Sequence record: OQ174500.1
DNA from: Escherichia phage REP1
Direction: 5' to 3' (one strand)
DNA: 64,000 nucleotides
Made by a program: the position numbers and the translations under genes. Positions 1,899 through 56,773 of the stretch are shown here, piece by piece. Numbering within the stretch: position 1 is the first letter of the stretch; each line of letters opens with the position of its first letter. A model generated the notes under the pieces. It was not told the origin of the DNA, searched no databases, and saw nothing but the letters and a program-made list of their open reading frames with translations.

Positions 1899-2816
1899 AT
1901 GGATTTAGAAATGATGTTGGATGAAGATTACAAAGAAGGAATTTGCTTTATTGACTTTAGTCAAATTGCGCTTTCAACTGCTTTAGTAAACTTCCCAGAT
2001 AAAGAAAAAATTAATTTATCAATGGTTCGTCATTTGATATTGAACTCAATTAAGTTTAATGTCAAAAAAGCAAAAACGCTTGGATACACTAAAATTGTAC
2101 TGTGTATTGATAACGCGAAATCTGGATACTGGCGTCGTGATTTCGCGTATTATTATAAGAAAAACCGTGGAAAAGCACGAGAAGAATCGACTTGGGACTG
2201 GGAAGGTTATTTTGAATCCAGCCACAAAGTTATAGATGAATTGAAAGCTTATATGCCATACATTGTTATGGATATTGATAAGTATGAAGCAGATGACCAC
2301 ATTGCTGTTCTTGTTAAAAAGTTCTCTTTAGAAGGACACAAGATTTTAATCATTTCATCGGATGGTGACTTTACTCAACTTCACAAATACCCAAATGTTA
2401 AGCAATGGTCACCGATGCACAAGAAATGGGTTAAAATTAAAAGCGGTTCTGCTGAAATTGACTGTATGACTAAAATCCTTAAAGGCGACAAAAAGGATAA
2501 CGTTGCTTCAGTTAAAGTACGATCTGACTTTTGGTTTACCAAAGTTGAAGGTGAACGAACTCCTTCAATGAAAACTTCAATCGTTGAAGCTATTGCTAAT
2601 GACCGTGAGCAAGCTAAGGTGCTTCTCACAGAATCTGAATATAATCGTTATAAAGAAAATTTAGTTCTAATTGATTTTGATTATATTCCTGATAATATTG
2701 CTTCAAACATTGTGAATTACTATAATTCATATAAATTACCACCGCGTGGCAAAATTTATTCATATTTTGTAAAAGCGGGTCTTTCTAAATTAACTAATAG
2801 CATTAATGAATTTTGA
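1899..2816 (+). CDS. rnh: RNase H (5'-3' exonuclease / flap endonuclease)
   Basis: Translation MDLEMMLDEDYKEGICFIDFSQ... 305 aa from ATG 1899 matches T4 RNase H; GAGG SD 5 nt upstream; track ORF begins at an upstream TTG. Confidence 0.93.
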   Translation: MDLEMMLDEDYKEGICFIDFSQIALSTALVNFPDKEKINLSMVRHLILNSIKFNVKKAKTLGYTKIVLCIDNAKSGYWRRDFAYYYKKNRGKAREESTWDWEGYFESSHKVIDELKAYMPYIVMDIDKYEADDHIAVLVKKFSLEGHKILIISSDGDFTQLHKYPNVKQWSPMHKKWVKIKSGSAEIDCMTKILKGDKKDNVASVKVRSDFWFTKVEGERTPSMKTSIVEAIANDREQAKVLLTESEYNRYKENLVLIDFDYIPDNIASNIVNYYNSYKLPPRGKIYSYFVKAGLSKLTNSINEF

Positions 2817-2824
2817 GGTGAATA

Positions 2825-3094
2825 ATGGCTAAAAAAGAAATGGTTGAATTTGATGAAGCTATCCATGGCGAAGACTTAGCTAAATTTATTAAAGAAGCAT
2901 CTGATCATAAACTGAAAATTTCCGGTTATAATGAACTGATTAAAGATATTCGAATTCGTGCTAAAGATGAACTTGGCGTTGATGGTAAGATGTTTAATCG
3001 TCTATTAGCTTTATATCATAAAGATAACCGTGATGTGTTTGAAGCTGAAACTGAAGAGGTAGTTGAACTTTATGACACAGTTTTCTCTAAATGA
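2825..3094 (+). CDS. dsbA: Double-stranded DNA binding protein DsbA (late transcription enhancer)
   Basis: 89-aa ORF MAKKEMVEFDEAIHG...; size and position after rnh as in T4. Confidence 0.85.
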   Translation: MAKKEMVEFDEAIHGEDLAKFIKEASDHKLKISGYNELIKDIRIRAKDELGVDGKMFNRLLALYHKDNRDVFEAETEEVVELYDTVFSK

Positions 3095-3410
3095 TATTCG
3101 TCCGGTCGATGAGACCGGTCTTTCAGAAAAAGAACTTTCAATTAAGAAAGAAAAGGATGAAATAGCAAAGCTTCTTGATCGTCAAGAAAATGGATTTATT
3201 ATTGAAAAAATGGTAGAAGAGTTTGGAATGAGTTATCTTGAAGCTACAACAGCATTCTTGGAAGAAAATTCTATTCCTGAAACTCAATTTGCTAAATTTA
3301 TTCCTTCGGGTATAATTGAAAAAATTCAGTCAGAAGCTATTGACGAAAATCTTTTACGTCCTTCTGTTGTTCGTTGTGAAAAAACTAATACATTAGATTT
3401 TCTGCTATGA
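3072..3410 (+). CDS. 33: Late transcription co-activator gp33
   Basis: MTQFSLNDIRPVDETGLSEKELS... ~112 aa matches T4 gp33; overlaps dsbA end. Confidence 0.88.
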   Translation: MTQFSLNDIRPVDETGLSEKELSIKKEKDEIAKLLDRQENGFIIEKMVEEFGMSYLEATTAFLEENSIPETQFAKFIPSGIIEKIQSEAIDENLLRPSVVRCEKTNTLDFLL

Positions 3411-4060
3411 TTAAACTCCGCATGCCTGCTGGTGGTGAAAGATATATTGATGGTAAATCAGTTTATAAATTATACTTAATGATAAAACAACATATGAATG
3501 GAAAATATGATGTTATTAAGTATAATTGGTGCATGCGGGTGTCTGATGCCGCTTATCAAAAACGAAGAGATAAGTATTTTTTCCAAAAGCTATCAGAAAA
3601 GTATAAATTAAAAGAATTGACTTTAATTTTTATAAGTAATTTGGTTGCTAACCAAGATGCTTGGATTGGCGACATCTCTGATGCTGATGCACTTGTGTTT
3701 TATCGTGAATATATCGGACGCTTAAAGCAAATTAAATTTAAGTTTGAAGAAGATATTCGCAACATTTATTATTTTAGTAAAAAAGTTGAAGTTTCTGCTT
3801 TTAAAGAAATTTTTGAGTATAATCCAAAAGTTCAATCAAGTTATATTTTTAAACTACTTCAATCGAATATAATTTCGTTTGAGACGTTTATCTTGCTTGA
3901 TTCGTTTTTAAATATAATTGATAAACATGATGAACAGACTGATAATTTAGTCTGGAATAATTATTCTATAAAGTTAAAAGCTTATAGAAAAATTTTAAAT
4001 ATCGATTCGCAGGAAGCTAAAAAAGTTTTTATTGAAACTGTGAAATCTTGTAAGTATTAA
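3407..4060 (+). CDS. 59: Helicase loader gp59
   Basis: 217 aa MIKLRMPAGGERYIDGKSVYKLYLM... matches T4 gp59; ATGA start/stop overlap with gene 33. Confidence 0.93.
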   Translation: MIKLRMPAGGERYIDGKSVYKLYLMIKQHMNGKYDVIKYNWCMRVSDAAYQKRRDKYFFQKLSEKYKLKELTLIFISNLVANQDAWIGDISDADALVFYREYIGRLKQIKFKFEEDIRNIYYFSKKVEVSAFKEIFEYNPKVQSSYIFKLLQSNIISFETFILLDSFLNIIDKHDEQTDNLVWNNYSIKLKAYRKILNIDSQEAKKVFIETVKSCKY

Positions 4061-4068
4061 TTGCTTAT

Positions 4069-4076
4069 TATAAATA
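4069..4076 (+). promoter_or_regulatory. Late promoter TATAAATA upstream of gene 32
   Basis: Exact TATAAATA 84 nt upstream of gene 32 ATG. Confidence 0.5.
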
Positions 4077-4093
4077 GATTATAATTATCTCAC

Positions 4094-4159
4094 TGACCAG
4101 CTATGAGGTCATACATCGTCATAGCACCAACTGTTAATTAAATTAAAAAGGAAATAAAA
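4094..4159 (+). promoter_or_regulatory. Gene 32 mRNA leader: pseudoknot plus AU-rich translational operator (gp32 autoregulation)
   Basis: tgaccagctatgaggtcatacatcgtcatagcac (pseudoknot-forming) followed by ttaattaaattaaaaaggaaataaaa immediately 5' of the gene 32 ATG, as in the T4 autoregulatory leader. Confidence 0.8.
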
Positions 4160-5068
4160 ATGTTTAAACGTAAATCTACTGCTGAACTCGCTGCACAAAT
4201 GGCTAAACTGGCTGGAAATAAAGGTGGTTTTTCTTCTGAAGATAAAGGCGAGTGGAAACTGAAACTCGATAATGCGGGTAACGGTCAAGCAGTAATTCGT
4301 TTTCTTCCGTCTAAAAATGATGAACAAGCACCATTCGCAATTCTTGTAAATCACGGTTTCAAGAAAAATGGTAAATGGTATATTGAAAACTGTTCATCTA
4401 CCCACGGTGATTACGATTCTTGCCCAGTATGTCAGTACATCAGTAAAAATGATTTGTACAACACTGACAATAAAGAGTACAGTCTTGTTAAACGTAAAAC
4501 TTCTTACTGGGCTAACATTCTTGTTGTAAAAGACCCAGCTGCTCCAGAAAATGAAGGTAAAGTATTTAAATACCGTTTCGGTAAGAAAATCTGGGATAAA
4601 ATCAATGCAATGATTGCAGTTGATGTTGAAATGGGTGAAACTCCGGTTGATGTAACTTGTCCGTGGGAAGGTGCTAACTTTGTACTGAAAGTTAAACAGG
4701 TTTCTGGATTTAGTAACTACGACGAATCTAAATTCCTGAATCAATCTGCGATTCCAAACATTGACGATGAATCTTTCCAGAAAGAACTGTTCGAACAAAT
4801 GGTTGACCTTTCTGAAATGACTTCTAAAGATAAATTCAAATCGTTTGAAGAACTGAGCACTAAATTCGGTCAAGTCATGGGAACTGCTGTGATGGGCGGT
4901 GCCGCTGCAACTGCTGCTAAGAAAGCTGATAAAGTTGCTGATGATTTGGATGCATTCAATGTTGATGACTTCAATACAAAAACTGAAGATGATTTTATGA
5001 GCTCAAGCTCTGGCAGTTCATCTAGTGCTGATGACACGGACCTAGATGACCTTTTGAATGACCTTTAA
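4160..5068 (+). CDS. 32: Single-stranded DNA binding protein gp32
   Basis: 302 aa [50 protein letters not shown]... matches T4 gp32 including Zn site C-x3-H...C-x2-C and acidic C-terminus. Confidence 0.97.

Positions 5069-15319: not shown

Positions 15320-15323
<4 letters not shown>
15087..15323 (+). CDS. Hypothetical early protein, 78 aa
   Basis: ORF in operon context, overlapping starts/stops. Confidence 0.5.
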
Positions 15324-16526
<1,203 letters not shown>

Positions 16527-17195: not shown

Positions 17196-17257
17196 TAGTT
17201 TACTTTACGGTAGAGTTGTGATATTATGGCTCTACCAAACAAATGAGGAAATTGAAA

Positions 17258-17785
17258 ATGGGCGAATGGTTTGAAGAAGATAAGGTTTATCGCTTTAAAG
17301 CTGGATATAAAGATATTTTTAATGAAACTTGTGGGGCTAATAAACGAATTGCCCAGTTTATTGATGAAAATTCATTTAAAGTAAAAATTGATCCTGCGAA
17401 GAATGTTATTAGCATTAAACGTGAAATTGATGACTGCTGGTATAAAGCTGTTGATGTAATGGGCGAATGCTATAAAGATAGCCCGTTATTTTCAATTACG
17501 TATATGTCAGAATATTATTTTTTCGAAGAAGTTCAAAAAGATGATTCTGTTAGTAAATTTGAAATTAAAACTGATAAAGAAATTAAGTGGAAAGTAGTAG
17601 GTATTACTGGTTGTATGTTCTATATCTATGCTCAAACTGATACGAAGGAAGAAGCTAAAAAGAAAGCTCTAGAATATCTTGAAGAGTATGAAGAAGGTCC
17701 GGTAATGATTACCCAAGATGCTGAATTAGTTTCTGTCAAATTAGTTAAAAACGTTGAAAGTAAGGAGCTAGGATCAACATGCTAA
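17258..17785 (+). CDS. Hypothetical protein, 175 aa
   Basis: ATG 17258 after GAGGA SD; early promoter gtttac...tattat at 17198-17227. Confidence 0.55.
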   Translation: MGEWFEEDKVYRFKAGYKDIFNETCGANKRIAQFIDENSFKVKIDPAKNVISIKREIDDCWYKAVDVMGECYKDSPLFSITYMSEYYFFEEVQKDDSVSKFEIKTDKEIKWKVVGITGCMFYIYAQTDTKEEAKKKALEYLEEYEEGPVMITQDAELVSVKLVKNVESKELGSTC

Positions 17786-27661: not shown

Positions 27662-29719
27662 ATGGAACTTATTACAGAATTATTTGACGGCGCTTCGGCG
27701 CCGGTTGTTAACTTAAATCCTAAGCATAAAATACCACAAATTTTTGCTATCCAAGTCGGCGAAGAAAGCGTGCTTCCTGGATTTAGATTTTGTACATACA
27801 CCTCTGGCGGTGATACAAATAAAAACGTTAAGCCAGGCGACAAAATGATGCATATCGTAATGATAGGTGTTAATGAGAAACTATCATTAGTTAAGCTTAA
27901 AAACTTGGGTGGAAATCCAATTGGCGTCATTAATGCTGTTTTTGATACTGCTCTTCAAACAATGAAACAGTATAAAATTGATGCATGCTTATTCCGCATA
28001 CTAAAGAGTAAAACAAATGGCGCTGCTCGTCAAATGCAAGTTATTGCTGACCGTTTAGTACGTACTAAAGGAGCAGGTCGATATGTTCTTTTAAAGGAAA
28101 TCTGGGACTATGATAAGAAATATGCATATATTATGGTTTACCGTAAAAATGCCAATTTAGAAGACATTCCAGGTGTACCTCCTATTTCAACTGAGTTATT
28201 CACAAAAGTTGAATCAAAGGTTGGTGATATTTATGTAGACGTTAAAACAGGTAATGCTGTTCCTAAAGCTGTCGCAGTTGCTGCTTCTATTGCTTTGGAA
28301 AATGATAAGCGCACGGATCAAGCTGTTATTCAGAAAACTAAAATTAGTCGTCGATTAGCAGCACAAGCTCAATATTCTACTGTTGATGCTTCACTTCAGG
28401 GTGATAGCTTCGCTGCTAAGAAATATCAAGAGTTTGAATCCAAAGTTCCGGTATATAAAGCAGAAGGACCAATGAACTCTGGCGTTATTCAGATTGGTTC
28501 AAACTTCGGCAAAGGAGCTATCGGTGGTATGAGAAGTGCTTCTCGTTTTAAATCTAACGATTATGAACTAGAAAACTTCCGAAATCATATTGCATTGGCC
28601 CATGCACGTTTACGCGATCCATCTATCAAGCTGCAGAGCGATATAACATATCAAGGTTCTCAAGAATATTTAAAGAATAAAGAATTCTTTGATTATAAAA
28701 CTGATAAAATTTTAAGCGATCTTGCTGACATTAATATTTCTAATAGCTTTGATGTTATTAAGAAAATTATCAATGATTTAGTTAAAGGTTCTAAAGCTAC
28801 ACCAGATGAAAAGACAGCTATTATTCAATTTGTCATGAATGGCATTTATAAATTGATTAATGAATCTGCCGCTCAGGCATATGAATATGCAAGTACTGAA
28901 GTAACTCCAAAAGGATTAACTCAGGCTGAGTCTGATGTAATTGAAGATTATTGTGCAGATTCATATGTTGAAATGAACTCGTTCCTTTTGGGTAAACCAG
29001 ATTCTACCCGTGAAGAATATATGGAACGAGCTATTAAACATATTGAGACGCTTGATTCTGCATTCGCTAAAGGTTCAGTTCTTCCTCCAGGAACTACACT
29101 TTACCGTGGACAAGAAGTTACCTTTAAAACTTTGCGTCATAACATTGAAAATAAAATGTTCTATTTCAAGAACTTCGTATCCACATCGCTTAAACCAAAT
29201 ATCTTCGGTGAGCATGGTAAAAACTATATGGCTCTAGATGATTCCGGCGCAGTATTTTCTGGCGAAGGAGAAGGTTCCGTTGATGCAGAAGATTTGATGC
29301 ATATGGGTAGTCATTCTACATATGCTAATGAAGATGCTGAAACTAGCGTGGGTATGGTAATTAAAGGAGCTGAGCGAATCAAAGTTATCGTTCCAGGTCA
29401 TTTATCAGGATTTCCATCAGAAGCTGAAGTTATTCTACCGCGTGGAATTTTACTGAAGATTAATAAAGTGAGCACGTACTTTATGAAAGAAACTGCTTAT
29501 AACAAGTATCTAATAGAAGGTACAATCGTTCCTCCTTCTGAACAATTAGAGGAATCGGTATATGATGGCGACCATCTAATGGAAACTGGTGAAGTTCGTC
29601 CAATGGCTGGATTTAATCAATTCCTTGTAGAAGAATCAAAAGAAGAGGAAAACGAAGTTTCTCAAATCTTGGCTTCTTTTGTTAACATCAACGGAATGTC
29701 TAAAAAGTTCAAAATGTAG
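27662..29719 (+). CDS. Alt-like ADP-ribosyltransferase paralog, full length, divergent central region
   Basis: 685 aa starting MELITELFDGASAPVVNLNPKHKIPQIF...; shares N-terminal ~200 aa and C-terminal ART motifs (YRGQ, FVSTSL, SEAEVILPRG) with Alt; centre differs. Confidence 0.8.
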   Translation: MELITELFDGASAPVVNLNPKHKIPQIFAIQVGEESVLPGFRFCTYTSGGDTNKNVKPGDKMMHIVMIGVNEKLSLVKLKNLGGNPIGVINAVFDTALQTMKQYKIDACLFRILKSKTNGAARQMQVIADRLVRTKGAGRYVLLKEIWDYDKKYAYIMVYRKNANLEDIPGVPPISTELFTKVESKVGDIYVDVKTGNAVPKAVAVAASIALENDKRTDQAVIQKTKISRRLAAQAQYSTVDASLQGDSFAAKKYQEFESKVPVYKAEGPMNSGVIQIGSNFGKGAIGGMRSASRFKSNDYELENFRNHIALAHARLRDPSIKLQSDITYQGSQEYLKNKEFFDYKTDKILSDLADINISNSFDVIKKIINDLVKGSKATPDEKTAIIQFVMNGIYKLINESAAQAYEYASTEVTPKGLTQAESDVIEDYCADSYVEMNSFLLGKPDSTREEYMERAIKHIETLDSAFAKGSVLPPGTTLYRGQEVTFKTLRHNIENKMFYFKNFVSTSLKPNIFGEHGKNYMALDDSGAVFSGEGEGSVDAEDLMHMGSHSTYANEDAETSVGMVIKGAERIKVIVPGHLSGFPSEAEVILPRGILLKINKVSTYFMKETAYNKYLIEGTIVPPSEQLEESVYDGDHLMETGEVRPMAGFNQFLVEESKEEENEVSQILASFVNINGMSKKFKM

Positions 29720-38624: not shown

Positions 38625-40136
38625 TTATAAATTAACTGTTTTCATTACGTAATTAAATTTTTCATCTGCGTAGCGCTGAATACGATCAATGCCGTGTTTT
38701 AAAAGATAGTTCAAATGAACATATTTCTTTTTCGTATTAGCAGATTTTGGCTTAACGCCACAATCATCTATGAGGTCCCAAACGGTTGCTATTGTCTTAG
38801 AACCATGCTTACGTAATACACGACCGATTGTTTGTAATACAATGATTTTTGATTTAACACCGTGCGCTAAAACAACGTGATGCAGATTTTTAACTGAAAT
38901 ACCAGTAGAAAATACACCATAACTAGCTACTATAATTATTCCTTTACCATTTTCAGCTAAGGTTTTCATTATATTGCGGGTTTCGGTATCAACTTCCCCT
39001 GATACGTAATAAACTTTATCGTATTCATTTTTAATTAAATCGAAAATAGCTTTACCATGTGATACATGTTTAAACATGACAAAAGCGTTTTCATCTTTTT
39101 GCGCAAGCTTAATAGCTAATTTAGCGATCCATTTATTTCTTTTACTAAGCCCAGTAATAATTTTTATTTCTTCTTGGTAAGTTTTTCCCTTTAATTTAGT
39201 AGTGAACTCATCGGGATAGCGAAGAAAAATACTATTAATTTTTAGCTCAGTTACTTGCCCATCTTCCATTAATTTAGAAGTCGTTACTGGCTTAAATATT
39301 TCACCAAACATTCCAACATACTGCATGATATTAGCTTTGCCATCACGTAATGAACCGGACAAACCGAATTTGAACATGCAGTTATTTAAACCTGATATGA
39401 TAGATGAAATACTTTTTCCTGTAGCAAGATGGCATTCATCATTCATCATCATTCCAAACTGTGAGAACCATTCTTTCGGTTGTTTAACTACAGTTTGCCA
39501 TGTACCAACAACGACTGGTGCATCATTTTTATATTTATCATCTTTTGATGCTCCGCCGCCAATTTTCTTTATCATTGCATGACTGAATAAACGATAGTCA
39601 ACAAAGTCATCAGCCATCTGAGTTGTCAGAGCAGTTGTTGGAACAATGATAAGAATTTTACCTTCATAATTTTCCAAATAATACCGAGCGAGCAAAGCTT
39701 GAATTAAAGATTTACCTGCGGATGTTGGAAGATTAAGAATTCTACGACGATTAACTAATCCTTCGAACACTGCATCTTTTTGATACCAATGTGGTTCAAT
39801 TCTTTTATTTCCTGAATAGATTTCTAATTTAGAAAGCCATTCATCAAAATCTTTTCTTGATAATTCTTCTTTTTCGTTAATTTGTGGGTCAATCCAGGCT
39901 TTATAGCCAAAGTTATCACAGAACTTTTTAATTTGCCCGACTAATCCAAATGGAAGAAGGCGATTATAATCTAAAAGACGGATTCGTCCATCCCAGTGGC
40001 CATATTTGTATTTCGGATTAAAACGATACCCATCAGCTTCAAAGCTAAAGAAATCACGGAGTTCATGAAATGTACTTTCTTCACAATCAATTCTCACGTG
40101 ACTAAAATCATAAAAATGTACTTTAATGTCAGTCAT
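38625..40136 (-). CDS. uvsW: UvsW DNA/RNA helicase (SF2)
   Basis: 503 aa; Walker A-like GKS (LPTSAGKSLIQA), DECH box (MMMNDECHLATGKS); matches T4 UvsW. Confidence 0.93.
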   Translation of the reverse strand: MTDIKVHFYDFSHVRIDCEESTFHELRDFFSFEADGYRFNPKYKYGHWDGRIRLLDYNRLLPFGLVGQIKKFCDNFGYKAWIDPQINEKEELSRKDFDEWLSKLEIYSGNKRIEPHWYQKDAVFEGLVNRRRILNLPTSAGKSLIQALLARYYLENYEGKILIIVPTTALTTQMADDFVDYRLFSHAMIKKIGGGASKDDKYKNDAPVVVGTWQTVVKQPKEWFSQFGMMMNDECHLATGKSISSIISGLNNCMFKFGLSGSLRDGKANIMQYVGMFGEIFKPVTTSKLMEDGQVTELKINSIFLRYPDEFTTKLKGKTYQEEIKIITGLSKRNKWIAKLAIKLAQKDENAFVMFKHVSHGKAIFDLIKNEYDKVYYVSGEVDTETRNIMKTLAENGKGIIIVASYGVFSTGISVKNLHHVVLAHGVKSKIIVLQTIGRVLRKHGSKTIATVWDLIDDCGVKPKSANTKKKYVHLNYLLKHGIDRIQRYADEKFNYVMKTVNL

Positions 40137-40186
40137 GTCTAAATACCATGTAATAAATATATCTATATTTATACTGAGGAAATATT

Positions 40187-44904: not shown

Positions 44905-44931
44905 TGCGCTTTCCTTTTGGTTTATATGATT

Positions 44932-44939
44932 TATTTATA
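44932..44939 (-). promoter_or_regulatory. Late promoter TATAAATA for gene 24
   Basis: tatttata on plus strand, 28-35 nt upstream of gp24 start. Confidence 0.6.
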
Positions 44940-44956
44940 CCATAAAAACAACTAAA

Positions 44957-44972
44957 GGGACCCGAAGGTCCC
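44957..44972 (-). terminator. Hairpin downstream of gene 23
   Basis: gggacccgaaggtccc with T-rich tract on the minus-strand transcript. Confidence 0.6.
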
Positions 44973-44987
44973 TTAAATCGTCAAAGA

Positions 44988-48723: not shown

Positions 48724-50348
<1,625 letters not shown>

Positions 50349-50380
50349 TTAAGCAGGATGGGGATTTCTCCCCATTCATT

Positions 50381-50872
50381 TTATTCCCAATAATCGAGAG
50401 CGAGAGTTACTTCAAAGGTTTGAATTTCATTGTTTGAATCCCAATCTAATTGAAGTTCACCCACGTTAGTAGGCCACAGGCCTTTAATTTCGACTTCTTT
50501 TGTTACAGTTTTAGCGTCACGAGCATATTGGCGTACAATAGCGCTCTTTTTATACTCTGCAGGTTTTCCACCGGTAATTTCGTTTCCTTGTCCTGCGGCA
50601 ATGCTTTGCCAATCAACAAACTTCTGGCGAGCATCATGAGCTTCATCGTTCATTACTGTAACAGTCCAGTCATCGAATGTACGATCGCCTGCCACGTTAA
50701 TTTTACGGTTCATAAATCCGACTGGAATTTTTTCTACAATACCAGCTGGTAAAGCAGTGGCTTTACATTGGAACGTAAAATTTTGTCCAAGATAAGAAAT
50801 TTCTACTTGGAATAAGTTAGGTCGAGCAAAATCACCAGATTCAAACGCTCGTGTTACATCATCTACAAACAT
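50381..50872 (-). CDS. 19: Tail tube protein gp19
   Basis: 163 aa, equals T4 gp19. Confidence 0.92.
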   Translation of the reverse strand: MFVDDVTRAFESGDFARPNLFQVEISYLGQNFTFQCKATALPAGIVEKIPVGFMNRKINVAGDRTFDDWTVTVMNDEAHDARQKFVDWQSIAAGQGNEITGGKPAEYKKSAIVRQYARDAKTVTKEVEIKGLWPTNVGELQLDWDSNNEIQTFEVTLALDYWE

Positions 50873-50886
50873 ATTAGCCTCTGTAG

Positions 50887-50894
50887 TATTTATA
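50887..50894 (-). promoter_or_regulatory. Late promoter TATAAATA proximal to gene 19
   Basis: tatttata on plus strand 15 nt upstream of gp19 ATG; a second copy at 50946-50953. Confidence 0.45.
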
Positions 50895-50979
50895 TCCCTA
50901 TGTTTAACCTAGGGCATATAGAATTAAAGAATTAAGGATATAGTGTATTTATATGGCCTGCCGAAACAGGCCTTTAGAA

Positions 50980-51618
50980 TCATTCTAGTAAATCCCAAAG
51001 ATCTACGCTATTTCTTTTTGACTTTTCTCGGTTAGATTCCCAAGTGATTATTTCTAAATTTTTTACACTTGCTATAATTTCCGGCGGAATTAAATTATCA
51101 AATCCATATTTGATAGATACTTTATGATCGAGTTGATAAGCACCTTCTACGCCGCACATTCCTATTTTATCAGCATTCGGCCATTTTGACCAGATTTTTC
51201 TTATTTTAGCTGACTTAGTTATAGAATGAACTCTACTAGCATATAATGCAAACTCTTTTCTTTTGCCAGTCCATCGAGGATGTTTATCACCTCTTTGCCA
51301 TGGTCTGCTTATTCCAGATTGAACTTCCGAATTTTTAATAGCAACTTGTTTAATGCTACATTTTCTACATGCATGTGTGGGTGTTCTATTTAAAAGTTGA
51401 ATGCTTCTACTAAATTTAGTACCACACAAATCACATTTAGCGTCAACTATTTTATTACTATTCTTTGGCATTAATTCTATTGGAACAGATACTGTATCAT
51501 GATATGATACTTTATATCCCAGAATTGTCGACCACATTTTTGAATGATTTCTTGGTTTTATTGTAACAAACTTAGAAATAATCACTTGTTTCCTCGAGAA
51601 TAGGGGCCGAAGCCCCAT
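50980..51618 (-). mobile_element. Free-standing HNH homing endonuclease ORF inserted between genes 18 and 19
   Basis: Zn-ribbon CDLCGTKF...CRKCS and C-terminal HNH motif YQLDHKVSIKYGFDNL...W.SN; start ambiguous (TTG 51624, ATG 51618 or ATG 51537). Confidence 0.7.
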
Positions 51619-51624
51619 AATCAA

Positions 51625-53604
51625 TTAACCTGCAAGACCAGTTAACTCATCAAAATCTGCACCGGTAGCAGTTGCGACGAAATTAAGTTGGATATAATTT
51701 ATACTACGAGCCGGTTGGATGTAGAATGTTGCAACAAACTCATTTCTATCAATTACTGACGGAGTGTTATTTGTTGTATCGCAAACTACACGATATTCAT
51801 AAATTCCACCGAGAGCTTTAATTCCCTGTAAGTACTGGGCAGTTTCTGTGCGGAATGATGAACGAGTAAACGCGTTGTTTAATTCGAACAAACGATATTT
51901 TGAACTACGTCCGATGTTCGTTTTCAACATATTAAACAGACGACGAACGTTAATACGATCAAATGGAGAAGGAACAGAAGTAGCTGTTTTATCACCATAC
52001 AATACGTAACCATCACCACCTGTACCAGTTACTGGGTTGATAGCTTCTTGGTATAAACGGTCGCGCTGAGCCTGGCGAGTTTCAATAGCCAGTTTAATAA
52101 CGTTAAGAATCTGACCACGATTATAACCAGCTGGAGACATCCAAGTCTGAGATACGTTATCAGTTCTTGCGCATAAACCAGCAATATCAGCTGCTAATGG
52201 AACCCAACGATTCACATCATTATATTTGTCATACTGATACTTGTAGTTACCATCAATTGCTGCATAGGTTGAACTGATATTAAAGTTATTATCAGTGTAT
52301 GAACCTGCTGCAGTTCTCCAGTTAACTAAATTATCTACTGCACGAGTTACAGGAATTCCAACTACAGTTTCACGCGGAGGAGAGCACAATACTAAGCAAT
52401 CTTGACGAGCATCCCCGATTGAAACAACATGTTTTTGGACAGTAGATGCTGTTTCTAAAGATTCACCGGCACAAGAACCCGCAATAAACAGTTGAACGTC
52501 AACAGATTCACGGTCAGCAAAGAAGTCCCAAGCTTCCATCAAATCTCCTGCTGTTACTTCAGCATTTGATGATAATCCACCAGACAGAGTTAAAATTCCA
52601 GAGAATCCTTCTGGCCAGTTTTGTGCAGTTGCAAAAATATATTCTGAGCCACCTTTTGCGAAAAAGTCATCGATATAGATGTTACTATCGTAAATATCTT
52701 TTTCACCACGCTTAGTTGAAAGAACAACGCTTTGAACAATAGCATCATTGCGACGAACTATAATAGCGTATTGTGAATCAGTTTGTGGTCCATATCCAAA
52801 CACTGCTTTGGCAGTAGATGCGCGTGTTCCGCCACCTGGATAAATTGGGAGTAATGCAGAAGCACCTTTTGCGTAGTCTGCTTTAGATACGATTTCAATT
52901 TCGATTTTATCGCCCAACTCGCCTGGATAAAGAGCTACTACTCCTGGAATTCCATATTTTTCGAGATTTGCTTGAAAGTCAACAGCTGTCATAGCAGCTT
53001 CGGCATTTTCAATTTCAGCTAATAAAATACCAGAATCAGTAATAATTTTTCCAAGAGTTATTACTGCAGCTAAACCAGAGGAAGACGAAGAAATTTCCGC
53101 AGTCCAGTTAGAACCTAATGCTGGATATTCGCCTACTTCTTTCGCTTTAGCGATAATTTTTGCGGTAGGAATATTAATTTTCTTAATTTTTCCATCAGCA
53201 TCTACTTCAGTAATTTTACCTTCTGTTTCAACATCTTCTGAAACATACTTAACAGTGATTTTATCTCCAACCGCGTAGTTACTACCTGGGGTAGAAATAG
53301 TGTATTCAATATTACCGGCAATCGGAGATGAGTTTTTAGCGGTATCTCTATCGACAGCACGCACAACTCGCAAATCATTTCCGTATTGTAAGAAATTCAT
53401 TGCAGACATAAAATAGTCAGCAGTTTCAGCTGTAGGTTGACCAAAAGTATTAACTAAATCTACTTCATTTGTAACCTGTTTAATTTGAAAAGCAGGACCC
53501 CACTGGAATTTACCGGCCAAAGCTGCTGTACCAGTAGAGTTATTAACCACGGTGCTTTGAACCGTAGTTTCTTTGAGCTCAATGCCCGGAGATAATAAAG
53601 TCAT
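51625..53604 (-). CDS. 18: Tail sheath protein gp18
   Basis: 659 aa, equals T4 gp18. Confidence 0.95.
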   Translation of the reverse strand: MTLLSPGIELKETTVQSTVVNNSTGTAALAGKFQWGPAFQIKQVTNEVDLVNTFGQPTAETADYFMSAMNFLQYGNDLRVVRAVDRDTAKNSSPIAGNIEYTISTPGSNYAVGDKITVKYVSEDVETEGKITEVDADGKIKKINIPTAKIIAKAKEVGEYPALGSNWTAEISSSSSGLAAVITLGKIITDSGILLAEIENAEAAMTAVDFQANLEKYGIPGVVALYPGELGDKIEIEIVSKADYAKGASALLPIYPGGGTRASTAKAVFGYGPQTDSQYAIIVRRNDAIVQSVVLSTKRGEKDIYDSNIYIDDFFAKGGSEYIFATAQNWPEGFSGILTLSGGLSSNAEVTAGDLMEAWDFFADRESVDVQLFIAGSCAGESLETASTVQKHVVSIGDARQDCLVLCSPPRETVVGIPVTRAVDNLVNWRTAAGSYTDNNFNISSTYAAIDGNYKYQYDKYNDVNRWVPLAADIAGLCARTDNVSQTWMSPAGYNRGQILNVIKLAIETRQAQRDRLYQEAINPVTGTGGDGYVLYGDKTATSVPSPFDRINVRRLFNMLKTNIGRSSKYRLFELNNAFTRSSFRTETAQYLQGIKALGGIYEYRVVCDTTNNTPSVIDRNEFVATFYIQPARSINYIQLNFVATATGADFDELTGLAG

Positions 53605-53632: not shown

Positions 53633-56773
<3,141 letters not shown>

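Follow-up and report, generated by a model that had tools for sequence, protein, structure and literature searches.

ORF19.1, a probable free-standing HNH homing endonuclease gene between the tail sheath and tail tube genes of a T6-like Escherichia phage

Genes 18 (tail sheath) and 19 (tail tube) are adjacent in phage T4, with only a 116-nt spacer without an open reading frame (ORF) between them. In Escherichia phage REP1 (sequence record OQ174500.1), a stretch of 64,000 nt of which was analysed here (the window), a gene is found in this place. It corresponds to ORF19.1 of phage T6 and, as outlined below, is probably a free-standing homing endonuclease gene. The window phage is a T6-like Tequatrovirus whose genes in the 18-19 region lie on the minus strand; here, identity over 1.6 kb amounts to 99.2% with phage Kelasse and 98.3% with T6. 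A preliminary description of this DNA had reported an ORF of about 200 aa with a zinc ribbon and an HNH motif between two late genes that are neighbours in T4, together with two hairpins and two TATAAATA boxes. All of these were recovered in their places on the minus strand. The features of the locus, in the numbering of the window, are the following:

50381..50872, minus strand: gene 19, encoding the tail tube protein (163 aa), downstream of ORF19.1
50887..50894, minus strand: proximal TATAAATA late-promoter box for gene 19, ancestral, with the same box in T4
50946..50953, minus strand: distal TATAAATA late-promoter box, ancestral, with the same box in T4
50955..50972, minus strand: second hairpin, GGCCUGU-UUCG-GCAGGCC (GGCCTGTTTCGGCAGGCC), in the ancestral 18-19 spacer outside the insert, identical in T4
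50980..51585, minus strand: ORF19.1 coding sequence, 201 aa, its stop TGA (50982-50980) straddling the right insert junction
50980-51624, minus strand: mechanical ORF (214 aa, TTG) of the program-made ORF list
50981..51623, minus strand: insert (cassette), 643 nt where an empty site of the T4 type has 7 nt (ACGGTGC), as aligned with T4, T2 and six further phages lacking it
51016..51153, minus strand: predicted HNH (beta-beta-alpha-metal) nuclease domain, with D153-H154 at 51129-51124, N176 at 51060-51058 and N185 at 51033-51031
51358..51435, minus strand: zinc ribbon / treble-clef, C51-x2-C54 ... C73-x2-C76 (CDLC...CRKC) in the 201-aa numbering
51583..51595, minus strand: Shine-Dalgarno sequence GAGGA (51591-51595) and probable GTG start (51583-51585), according to homologue starts and the PHROG alignment
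51603..51616, minus strand: first, cassette-borne hairpin, GGGGC-UUCG-GCCCC (GGGGCTTCGGCCCC), 8 nt past the gene 18 stop and upstream of the ribosome-binding site of the ORF
51625..53604, minus strand: gene 18, encoding the tail sheath protein (659 aa), upstream of ORF19.1, with a 3' end that aligns with T4 gene 18
51673..51711, minus strand: variable block in gene 18, codons A-R-S-I-N-Y-I-Q-L-N-F-V-A, candidate homing target or co-conversion footprint
51696..51703, minus strand: TATAAATT, a 7/8 match to the T4 late-promoter box, read from the sequence inside the variable block
53633-53640, minus strand: gene 18 late promoter TATAAATA, the likely source of read-through transcripts

The limits of the cassette can be given to the nucleotide. 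When the whole window was compared to T4 by BLASTN, the interval left unmatched at this locus was exactly 50980-51624. The T4 junction has the sequence ...GGTTAAT-ACGGTGC-ATTCTAAAGGCCTGTTTCGGCAGGCCATATAAATA..., and the alignment is identical from ATTCTAAAGG through gene 19; positions 50873-50980 of the window correspond to T4 base for base. The empty sites of T4, T2, RB14, SG1, fPS-2, KAW1E185, JY01 and SHFML-11 read TAAT-A[C/T]G[G/A]TGC-ATTCTAAAGG, while carriers of the cassette read TAAT-[643 nt]-ATTCTAAAGG. In line with the preliminary description, which had called the ORF an insertion relative to T4, the boundaries are sharp in alignments with insert-free phages, the ORF is absent from the T4 locus, and comparison of the 18-19 region across T-even genomes revealed the insert in some close relatives only. 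The cassette explains one indel separating T6-like from T4-like genomes. On the plus strand beneath the insert there is no competing ORF of at least 40 aa, and an Rfam scan of 50300-52000 found no RNA family.

The start of the gene needed revision. The mechanical ORF indeed abuts the gene 18 stop codon TAA (51627-51625), and the preliminary description had let the gene begin there, over the first hairpin. However, this start was rejected: the PHROG profile alignment opens at the residue encoded by GTG 51585, all homologues start with M/V-I-I-S/T-K, the upstream ATG at 51618 is not conserved (Shigella phage vB_SsoM_113 has GTG and phage W143 has AAG in its place), and the T6 record of 1994 notes the same GTG start. 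Most likely, ORF19.1 begins at GTG 51585-51583 behind GAGGA, resulting in a protein of 201 aa, and the first hairpin therefore belongs to the 5' leader and not to the coding sequence.

The protein is ORF19.1 of T6, also annotated as gene 19.1, which was deposited in 1994. The ORF itself is thus not new, and a few recent records already label homologues as HNH or homing endonucleases. Nearly all homologues are annotated as hypothetical, the few other labels being HNH endonuclease, homing endonuclease, type II restriction endonuclease and head morphogenesis protein. The match to PHROG 5104 is strong (E = 1e-81), and this PHROG has no assigned function. Literature searches did not turn up any study characterising ORF19.1/gp19.1 or a homing gene located between genes 18 and 19. 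A 2010 census of the homing genes of T4 relatives lists no 'other HNH' entry for RB3 and one for T2; since RB3 carries an ORF19.1-type gene and T2 does not, which is the opposite of these entries, ORF19.1 was probably not counted.

Two observations indicate a functional gene: 232 of 243 tblastn records match 80% or more of the protein within a single place, and comparison of the alleles gives a pN/pS of 0.04-0.10, which shows purifying selection on ORF19.1. Truncated relatives of 106-166 aa also exist, for example BFVD M1HDJ8 of Salmonella phage S16 (106 aa, 59% identity to the window protein); these may be decaying gene copies.

Both UUCG hairpins and the late-promoter boxes were considered with respect to the origin and the expression of the cassette. 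The 14-mer of the hairpin at 51603-51616 is also present in the RB3-type cassette and in that of Shewanella phage Thanatos-2, and it is absent from T4. A hairpin lies between gene 18 and the ORF in every lineage examined, and in VR7 and Acj61 it holds a TATAAATA box. The second hairpin has a predicted fold of -14 kcal/mol (z = -2.6). The TATAAATA octamer occurs 18 times in the window, while 9.1 occurrences are expected (0 of 100 shuffles reached 18), and the proximal box is a predicted late promoter in the annotation of Yersinia phage fPS-2. The preliminary description had suggested that the insertion brought or duplicated a late promoter. This idea was refuted, because the GGCCTGTTTCGGCAGGCC hairpin and both boxes are present, and identical, in insert-free T4. 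A scan for sigma-70 promoters and terminators gave background-level matches only, and no T-run follows either UUCG hairpin. ORF19.1 is probably transcribed by read-through from the gene 18 promoter at 53633-53640. It is tempting to speculate that TATAAATT, which was found in the T6 and RB3 haplotypes and is missing from the T4 haplotype, could be an extra promoter for ORF19.1. All but one of the homing endonuclease genes of T4 have the orientation of their neighbours (PMC2988022), and the same is true for ORF19.1; its presumably late expression would also fit the description of the T4 homing genes in that work (PMC2988022).

The N-terminal part of the protein contains the zinc ribbon. Among 29 relatives, C54 is invariant and C51 and C73 are present in at least 90%. 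In 12 of the 29 family members this part gives weak matches to DUF4379, a treble-clef zinc finger. The module is presumed to read the DNA target.

The C-terminal part contains the motif YQLDHKVS...NL...WESN, which provides D153, H154, N176 and N185. These four residues are invariant in the 29 family members, and in an alignment of 72 diverse copies of the C-terminal domain no column apart from this D, H, N and N is invariant. Thus, the HNH catalytic residues, on whose presence the preliminary description had made its proposal depend, are all kept. An exhaustive profile search for this domain retrieved 6,385 cluster representatives at E <= 1e-3. In the AlphaFold model (pLDDT 88.6), the D-H pair ends a strand (150-154), N176 opens a second strand (177-181) and N185 is located in a helix (182-190). 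The model therefore shows the beta-hairpin followed by a helix, with a presumed metal site, that characterises the HNH superfamily. Foldseek against viral models returned members of the family first and then annotated HNH or homing endonucleases (E = 1e-5 to 7.5e-4). Against the PDB it returned nothing significant; the best fold matches of the predicted model among solved structures are HNH nucleases of the nicking type. With hhalign, YQLDH was paired with YDVDH and eNRxK with KNRGK of Cas9 (P = 0.0012).

The preliminary description had also proposed a comparison with HNH families. Here the outcome was divided: no curated model matches, but the catalytic residues and the predicted fold are of the HNH type. 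In Pfam, the window protein has no HNH family at E <= 1, and one of the 29 relatives matches HNH_4 with E = 0.078. The full-length profile found only zinc fingers among PDB sequences. The profile of the nuclease domain also matched leucine-rich-repeat proteins with E down to 1.4e-7. We rejected these matches as spurious, due to a chance motif resemblance: the segment P-x-E-I-G-x-I-x-N-L-Q-x-I-P-W-x-x-N (also given as P-x-E-I-G-x-L-x-N-L-Q) mimics the leucine-rich-repeat consensus and is a trap for automated annotation. From motif, conservation and model we conclude that the C-terminal domain is a predicted HNH-type (D-H/N/N) nuclease domain which lies beyond the curated libraries. In distant relatives it is fused to helix-turn-helix arrays or to DUF7487, a modular build that is typical of homing enzymes.

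The distribution of the cassette was analysed at the level of the junction and at the level of homologues. Among the 655 records that match the region, the T6-type allele was found in 69 and a second, RB3-type allele in 48; a junction query of 495 records (approximately 490-495 Tequatrovirus) confirmed the 117 carriers. The empty junction is identical in T4, T2 and the majority of the remaining phages. Carriage is patchy among genomes that are 95-99% identical. The T6-type and RB3-type cassettes have the first ~50 nt and the nuclease-coding 3' part in common (85-100% identity), while the approximately 370 nt coding for the zinc ribbon (51204-51570 of the window, minus strand; 2540-2920 of the RB3 stretch) are only ~45% identical. 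This pattern indicates that the N-terminal difference between the alleles is a module swap.

Homologues directly after gene 18 were found in RB3, VR7, Klebsiella phage Roth17, the Dhakavirus phages Bp7 and vB_EcoM_005, Acinetobacter phage Acj61, Aeromonas phage AS-zj, Shewanella phage Thanatos-2, Sinorhizobium phage phiM12 and a metagenome contig; the position is thus kept in at least seven further T4-like lineages. In phiM12 the homologue is not followed by gene 19, and therefore the association is with gene 18. The similarity of the ORFs conflicts with that of the flanking genes, as expected for horizontal spread. Gp18 and gp19 of the window phage and RB3 are 99% identical, while their ORFs share 56%; VR7 and Bp7 share 90% in gp18 and only 30% in the ORF. 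The closest counterparts of the RB3 ORF are found in Roth17 and Thanatos-2 (62-64%), and the RB3-type cassette is present on two different gene 18 haplotypes. Relatives also occur at other loci. In Acinetobacter phage 133, rnlA is interrupted by a relative (Acj133p227) and has thereby become a gene in pieces, rnlA-A and rnlA-B (2070-4147 of the examined stretch); the depositors noted 'some similarity to ORF19.1'. The relative with the DUF7487 N-terminus has an unrelated genomic context. Two otherwise matching metagenome contigs differ in four small genes immediately downstream of a DUF7487 and nuclease relative, a further local indel beside a family member. In Bp7 (3769-4350) and vB_EcoM_005 (3747-4328), a second gene, annotated as HNH endonuclease, is located between genes 19 and 20. 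We regard the 18-19-20 spacers as an insertion hot spot.

The 3' end of gene 18 attracted our attention as a possible target. Over the 3'-terminal 498 nt of this gene in 14 Tequatrovirus genomes, 15 of the 63 variable sites fall in 36 nt (51673-51708; binomial 1.4e-5, Bonferroni 0.002); together with the adjacent Ala codon, this stretch makes up the block 51673-51711. Its changes are synonymous save for one codon (T or Q), with at least five haplotypes among phages that are 97-99% identical, and PARSINYITLNFVA, the peptide it encodes, is better conserved than any other part of the C-terminus of gp18 throughout the T4 superfamily. The exact T6 haplotype (55 records, in addition to near-exact ones) comes with the T6-type gene in every case cross-checked. 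It comprises the last ~95 nt of gene 18 and travels with the T6-type allele in the population data, a linkage that is suggestive of co-conversion. The RB3-type gene is mostly on a haplotype shared with T2. The idea that the T4 haplotype of the block never goes together with the gene was rejected, since it is the background of the RB3-type cassette in sb1, sb2, sb3 and Ec_YwIITB1. Likewise, we did not rely on the possibility that the block haplotypes were imported from the donor lineages of the ORF alleles, for which there is a weak trend only (34 versus 29-31 of 45 positions). The block is a candidate for the homing site or for a co-conversion footprint, and we do not take it further than that.

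Taken together, we consider it quite probable, on the basis of sequence and predicted structure, that the cassette at 50981-51623 is a free-standing homing-endonuclease gene encoding a zinc ribbon and a C-terminal HNH domain. The preliminary description had seen a homing-endonuclease insertion here; the optional insert, the catalytic residues and the predicted HNH fold speak for it, and the homing activity itself is what we infer from them. An optional gene in a spacer, with sharp boundaries and with presence or absence in close relatives, is what defines a free-standing homing gene. The insertion polymorphism, the fidelity to one locus with conflicting similarity, and the relatives at other loci are the usual signatures of such a gene. 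The proposed course of events is as follows. Late in infection, transcripts starting at the late promoter of gene 18 would read through the UUCG hairpin of the cassette and into the gene. In a cell co-infected by a phage with the empty junction, such as T4 or T2, the enzyme would nick or cut the genome of that phage near this junction, the conserved 3'-terminal part of gene 18 being the most likely site. Recombination-dependent repair, with the carrier genome as template, could then copy the cassette along with a short piece of gene 18, and the inheritance of the cassette would be biased.

Several observations weigh against this proposal. Our literature searches did not reveal any experiments reporting cleavage or homing. 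In the protein and its 29 relatives, neither Pfam nor NCBIfam nor PADLOC recognised an HNH or defence family, the only signal being a weak zinc ribbon, and profile searches of PDB sequences had no HNH match below E = 1. In the window phage, no late-promoter box exists in the 40 nt before the ORF start. The variable block proposed as target does not go strictly with carriage of the gene: RB14 and SG1 have a near-T6 haplotype without it, and the RB3-type gene is found on the T4 haplotype in at least four records. Further, the strict position after gene 18 over very distant phages also fits an old resident gene that serves the phage and was repeatedly lost. The latter point leads to an explanation that we regard as unlikely, though worth keeping in mind, namely that ORF19.1 is a domesticated or accessory nuclease serving the phage's own cycle (exclusion of competitors, late DNA processing or nicking), which is co-expressed with the tail genes and often lost, e.g. 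in T4 and T2. The post-gene-18 position in at least seven further lineages, down to phiM12 (gp18 40% identical), the strong purifying selection, the hairpin between gene 18 and the ORF in all lineages looked at, and the nicking HNH enzymes as closest solved folds would all fit such a role, and it was cautioned that HNH genes beside packaging genes can be working phage parts (PMC10055350). However, about three quarters of the close relatives, including T4 and T2, do without the gene, and their one identical empty junction points to a single ancestral empty site and not to many independent deletions. The sharp conflict between ORF and flank similarity, the relative inside rnlA of phage 133 and the joining of the nuclease domain to many unrelated DNA-binding modules also speak against a resident gene. 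In any case, an accessory function is compatible with homing.

That the gene is a decayed, catalytically dead remnant, or that it encodes a plain zinc-finger regulator binding DNA or RNA in which the HNH-like motif arose by chance, seems very improbable to us. Such a view could invoke the lack of a significant match to curated HNH models, the resemblance-driven hits of the domain profile to leucine-rich-repeat proteins, and the zinc ribbon as the strongest sequence signal. But the four residues invariant in 72 sequences constitute the HNH site with canonical spacing and sit on the predicted beta-beta-alpha elements, HNH nucleases come first in the structure searches, and the low pN/pS speaks against decay. 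Even less credence can be given to an HK97-type packaging HNH protein, which would aid terminase cutting and be encoded near terminase and portal genes. Although the gene is located within the 17-18-19-20 late cluster and some records label it 'putative head morphogenesis protein', this label has no support from any domain search, the gene is missing from T4, T2 and ~75% of close relatives, and it lies between the sheath and tube genes, adjacent neither to the small terminase gene nor to a cos site. Moreover, T4-type phages package by the headful mechanism with the nuclease of gp17.

If ORF19.1 is a homing endonuclease gene, it can be compared with mobA-mobE, of which MobE is characterised. 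Like these, it is optional, located in a spacer between conserved genes, patchy among close relatives and in the orientation of its neighbours, and its predicted chemistry is of the HNH type. Like kin of mobE, its relatives can split genes, as rnlA of phage 133 shows; a parallel is the mobE-like gene in nrdA of Aeromonas phage Aeh1 that Friedrich et al. reportedly described in 2007 (a title cited in PMC3322345). At the same time, neither the Mob proteins nor Pfam HNH_3 show detectable similarity in sequence to ORF19.1, and its domain order is reversed: in MobA-E the HNH_3-type domain is N-terminal and the DNA-binding part C-terminal, whereas in ORF19.1 the zinc ribbon is N-terminal and the nuclease C-terminal. 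The mob loci are related to nucleotide metabolism, and the locus of ORF19.1 is that of the late structural genes 18 and 19.

With respect to the active site, ORF19.1 resembles I-HmuI and the Cas9-type 'HNN' variants of HNH, in which a D-H pair ends the first strand and is followed by an Asn and by a second Asn 9 residues further on (N176 to N185). In these enzymes, the D-H pair provides the general base, the first Asn is structural and the Asn in the helix binds the metal. In contrast to I-HmuI and Cas9, the inter-strand insert of ORF19.1 is longer (21 residues with two short helices), and, unlike in the comparison set, no zinc-binding CxxC pair flanks the motif. The small nicking HNH enzymes Gme HNH (4h9d, Geobacter), GVE2 HNH (5h0o) and SciA of T5 (9qgx) are 10-18% identical to ORF19.1 and have no counterpart of its N-terminal zinc ribbon; GVE2 HNH is a partner of terminase, a role that is not proposed for ORF19.1. 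Hef of phage U5, a homing enzyme replacing mobE, was described as Vsr-like (bioRxiv 10.1101/2022.08.31.505936), and this description sets it apart from the HNH-like ORF19.1.

Apart from this locus, the window differs from T4 at several further sites. The T4 homing genes segE (T4 112057-112674) and segD (T4 106561-107232) are absent from the window phage, which has only spacers of 20 nt and 58 nt at the corresponding sites (window 40130-40150 and 44919-44977). Where T4 has only the fragments alt.-1 and alt.-2, which its annotation describes as remnants of an old alt duplication, the window contains an intact ORF of 685 aa (27662-29719, plus strand), probably a second full-length gene for an Alt-like ADP-ribosyltransferase. 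Two further insertions relative to T4 are an ORF of 100 aa at the pseT/pseT.1 boundary (15320-15622, plus strand) and one of 180 aa between cd.2 and cd.3 (17243-17785, plus strand).

The T-even phages are the classic system of free-standing homing, and their characterised Seg, Mob and Hef enzymes are mostly encoded near genes of nucleotide metabolism. ORF19.1 is probably an ordinary representative of this kind of selfish gene, a free-standing HNH homing endonuclease, and the finding is useful to specialists rather than surprising. If homing occurs, ORF19.1 would add an enzyme with reversed domain order and a structural-gene target, between the essential tail genes 18 and 19. A far-reaching extension, which we put forward tentatively and hold to be rather doubtful, is that ORF19.1 is the founding member of an HNH clade (the 6,385 cluster representatives) without a curated model, whose zinc-ribbon subfamily may home throughout the T4 superfamily to the DNA coding for PARSINYITLNFVA, 50-90 bp from the insertion point. 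On this view, an arms race of cutting and resistance would have left the synonymous hypervariability as its footprint, and the N-terminal swap would correspond to retargeting. Only the presumed DNA-reading module distinguishes the T6-type from the RB3-type allele, and the two are a ready natural pair for studies of specificity change. With this, the widespread family PHROG 5104, so far of 'unknown function', gains a testable function.

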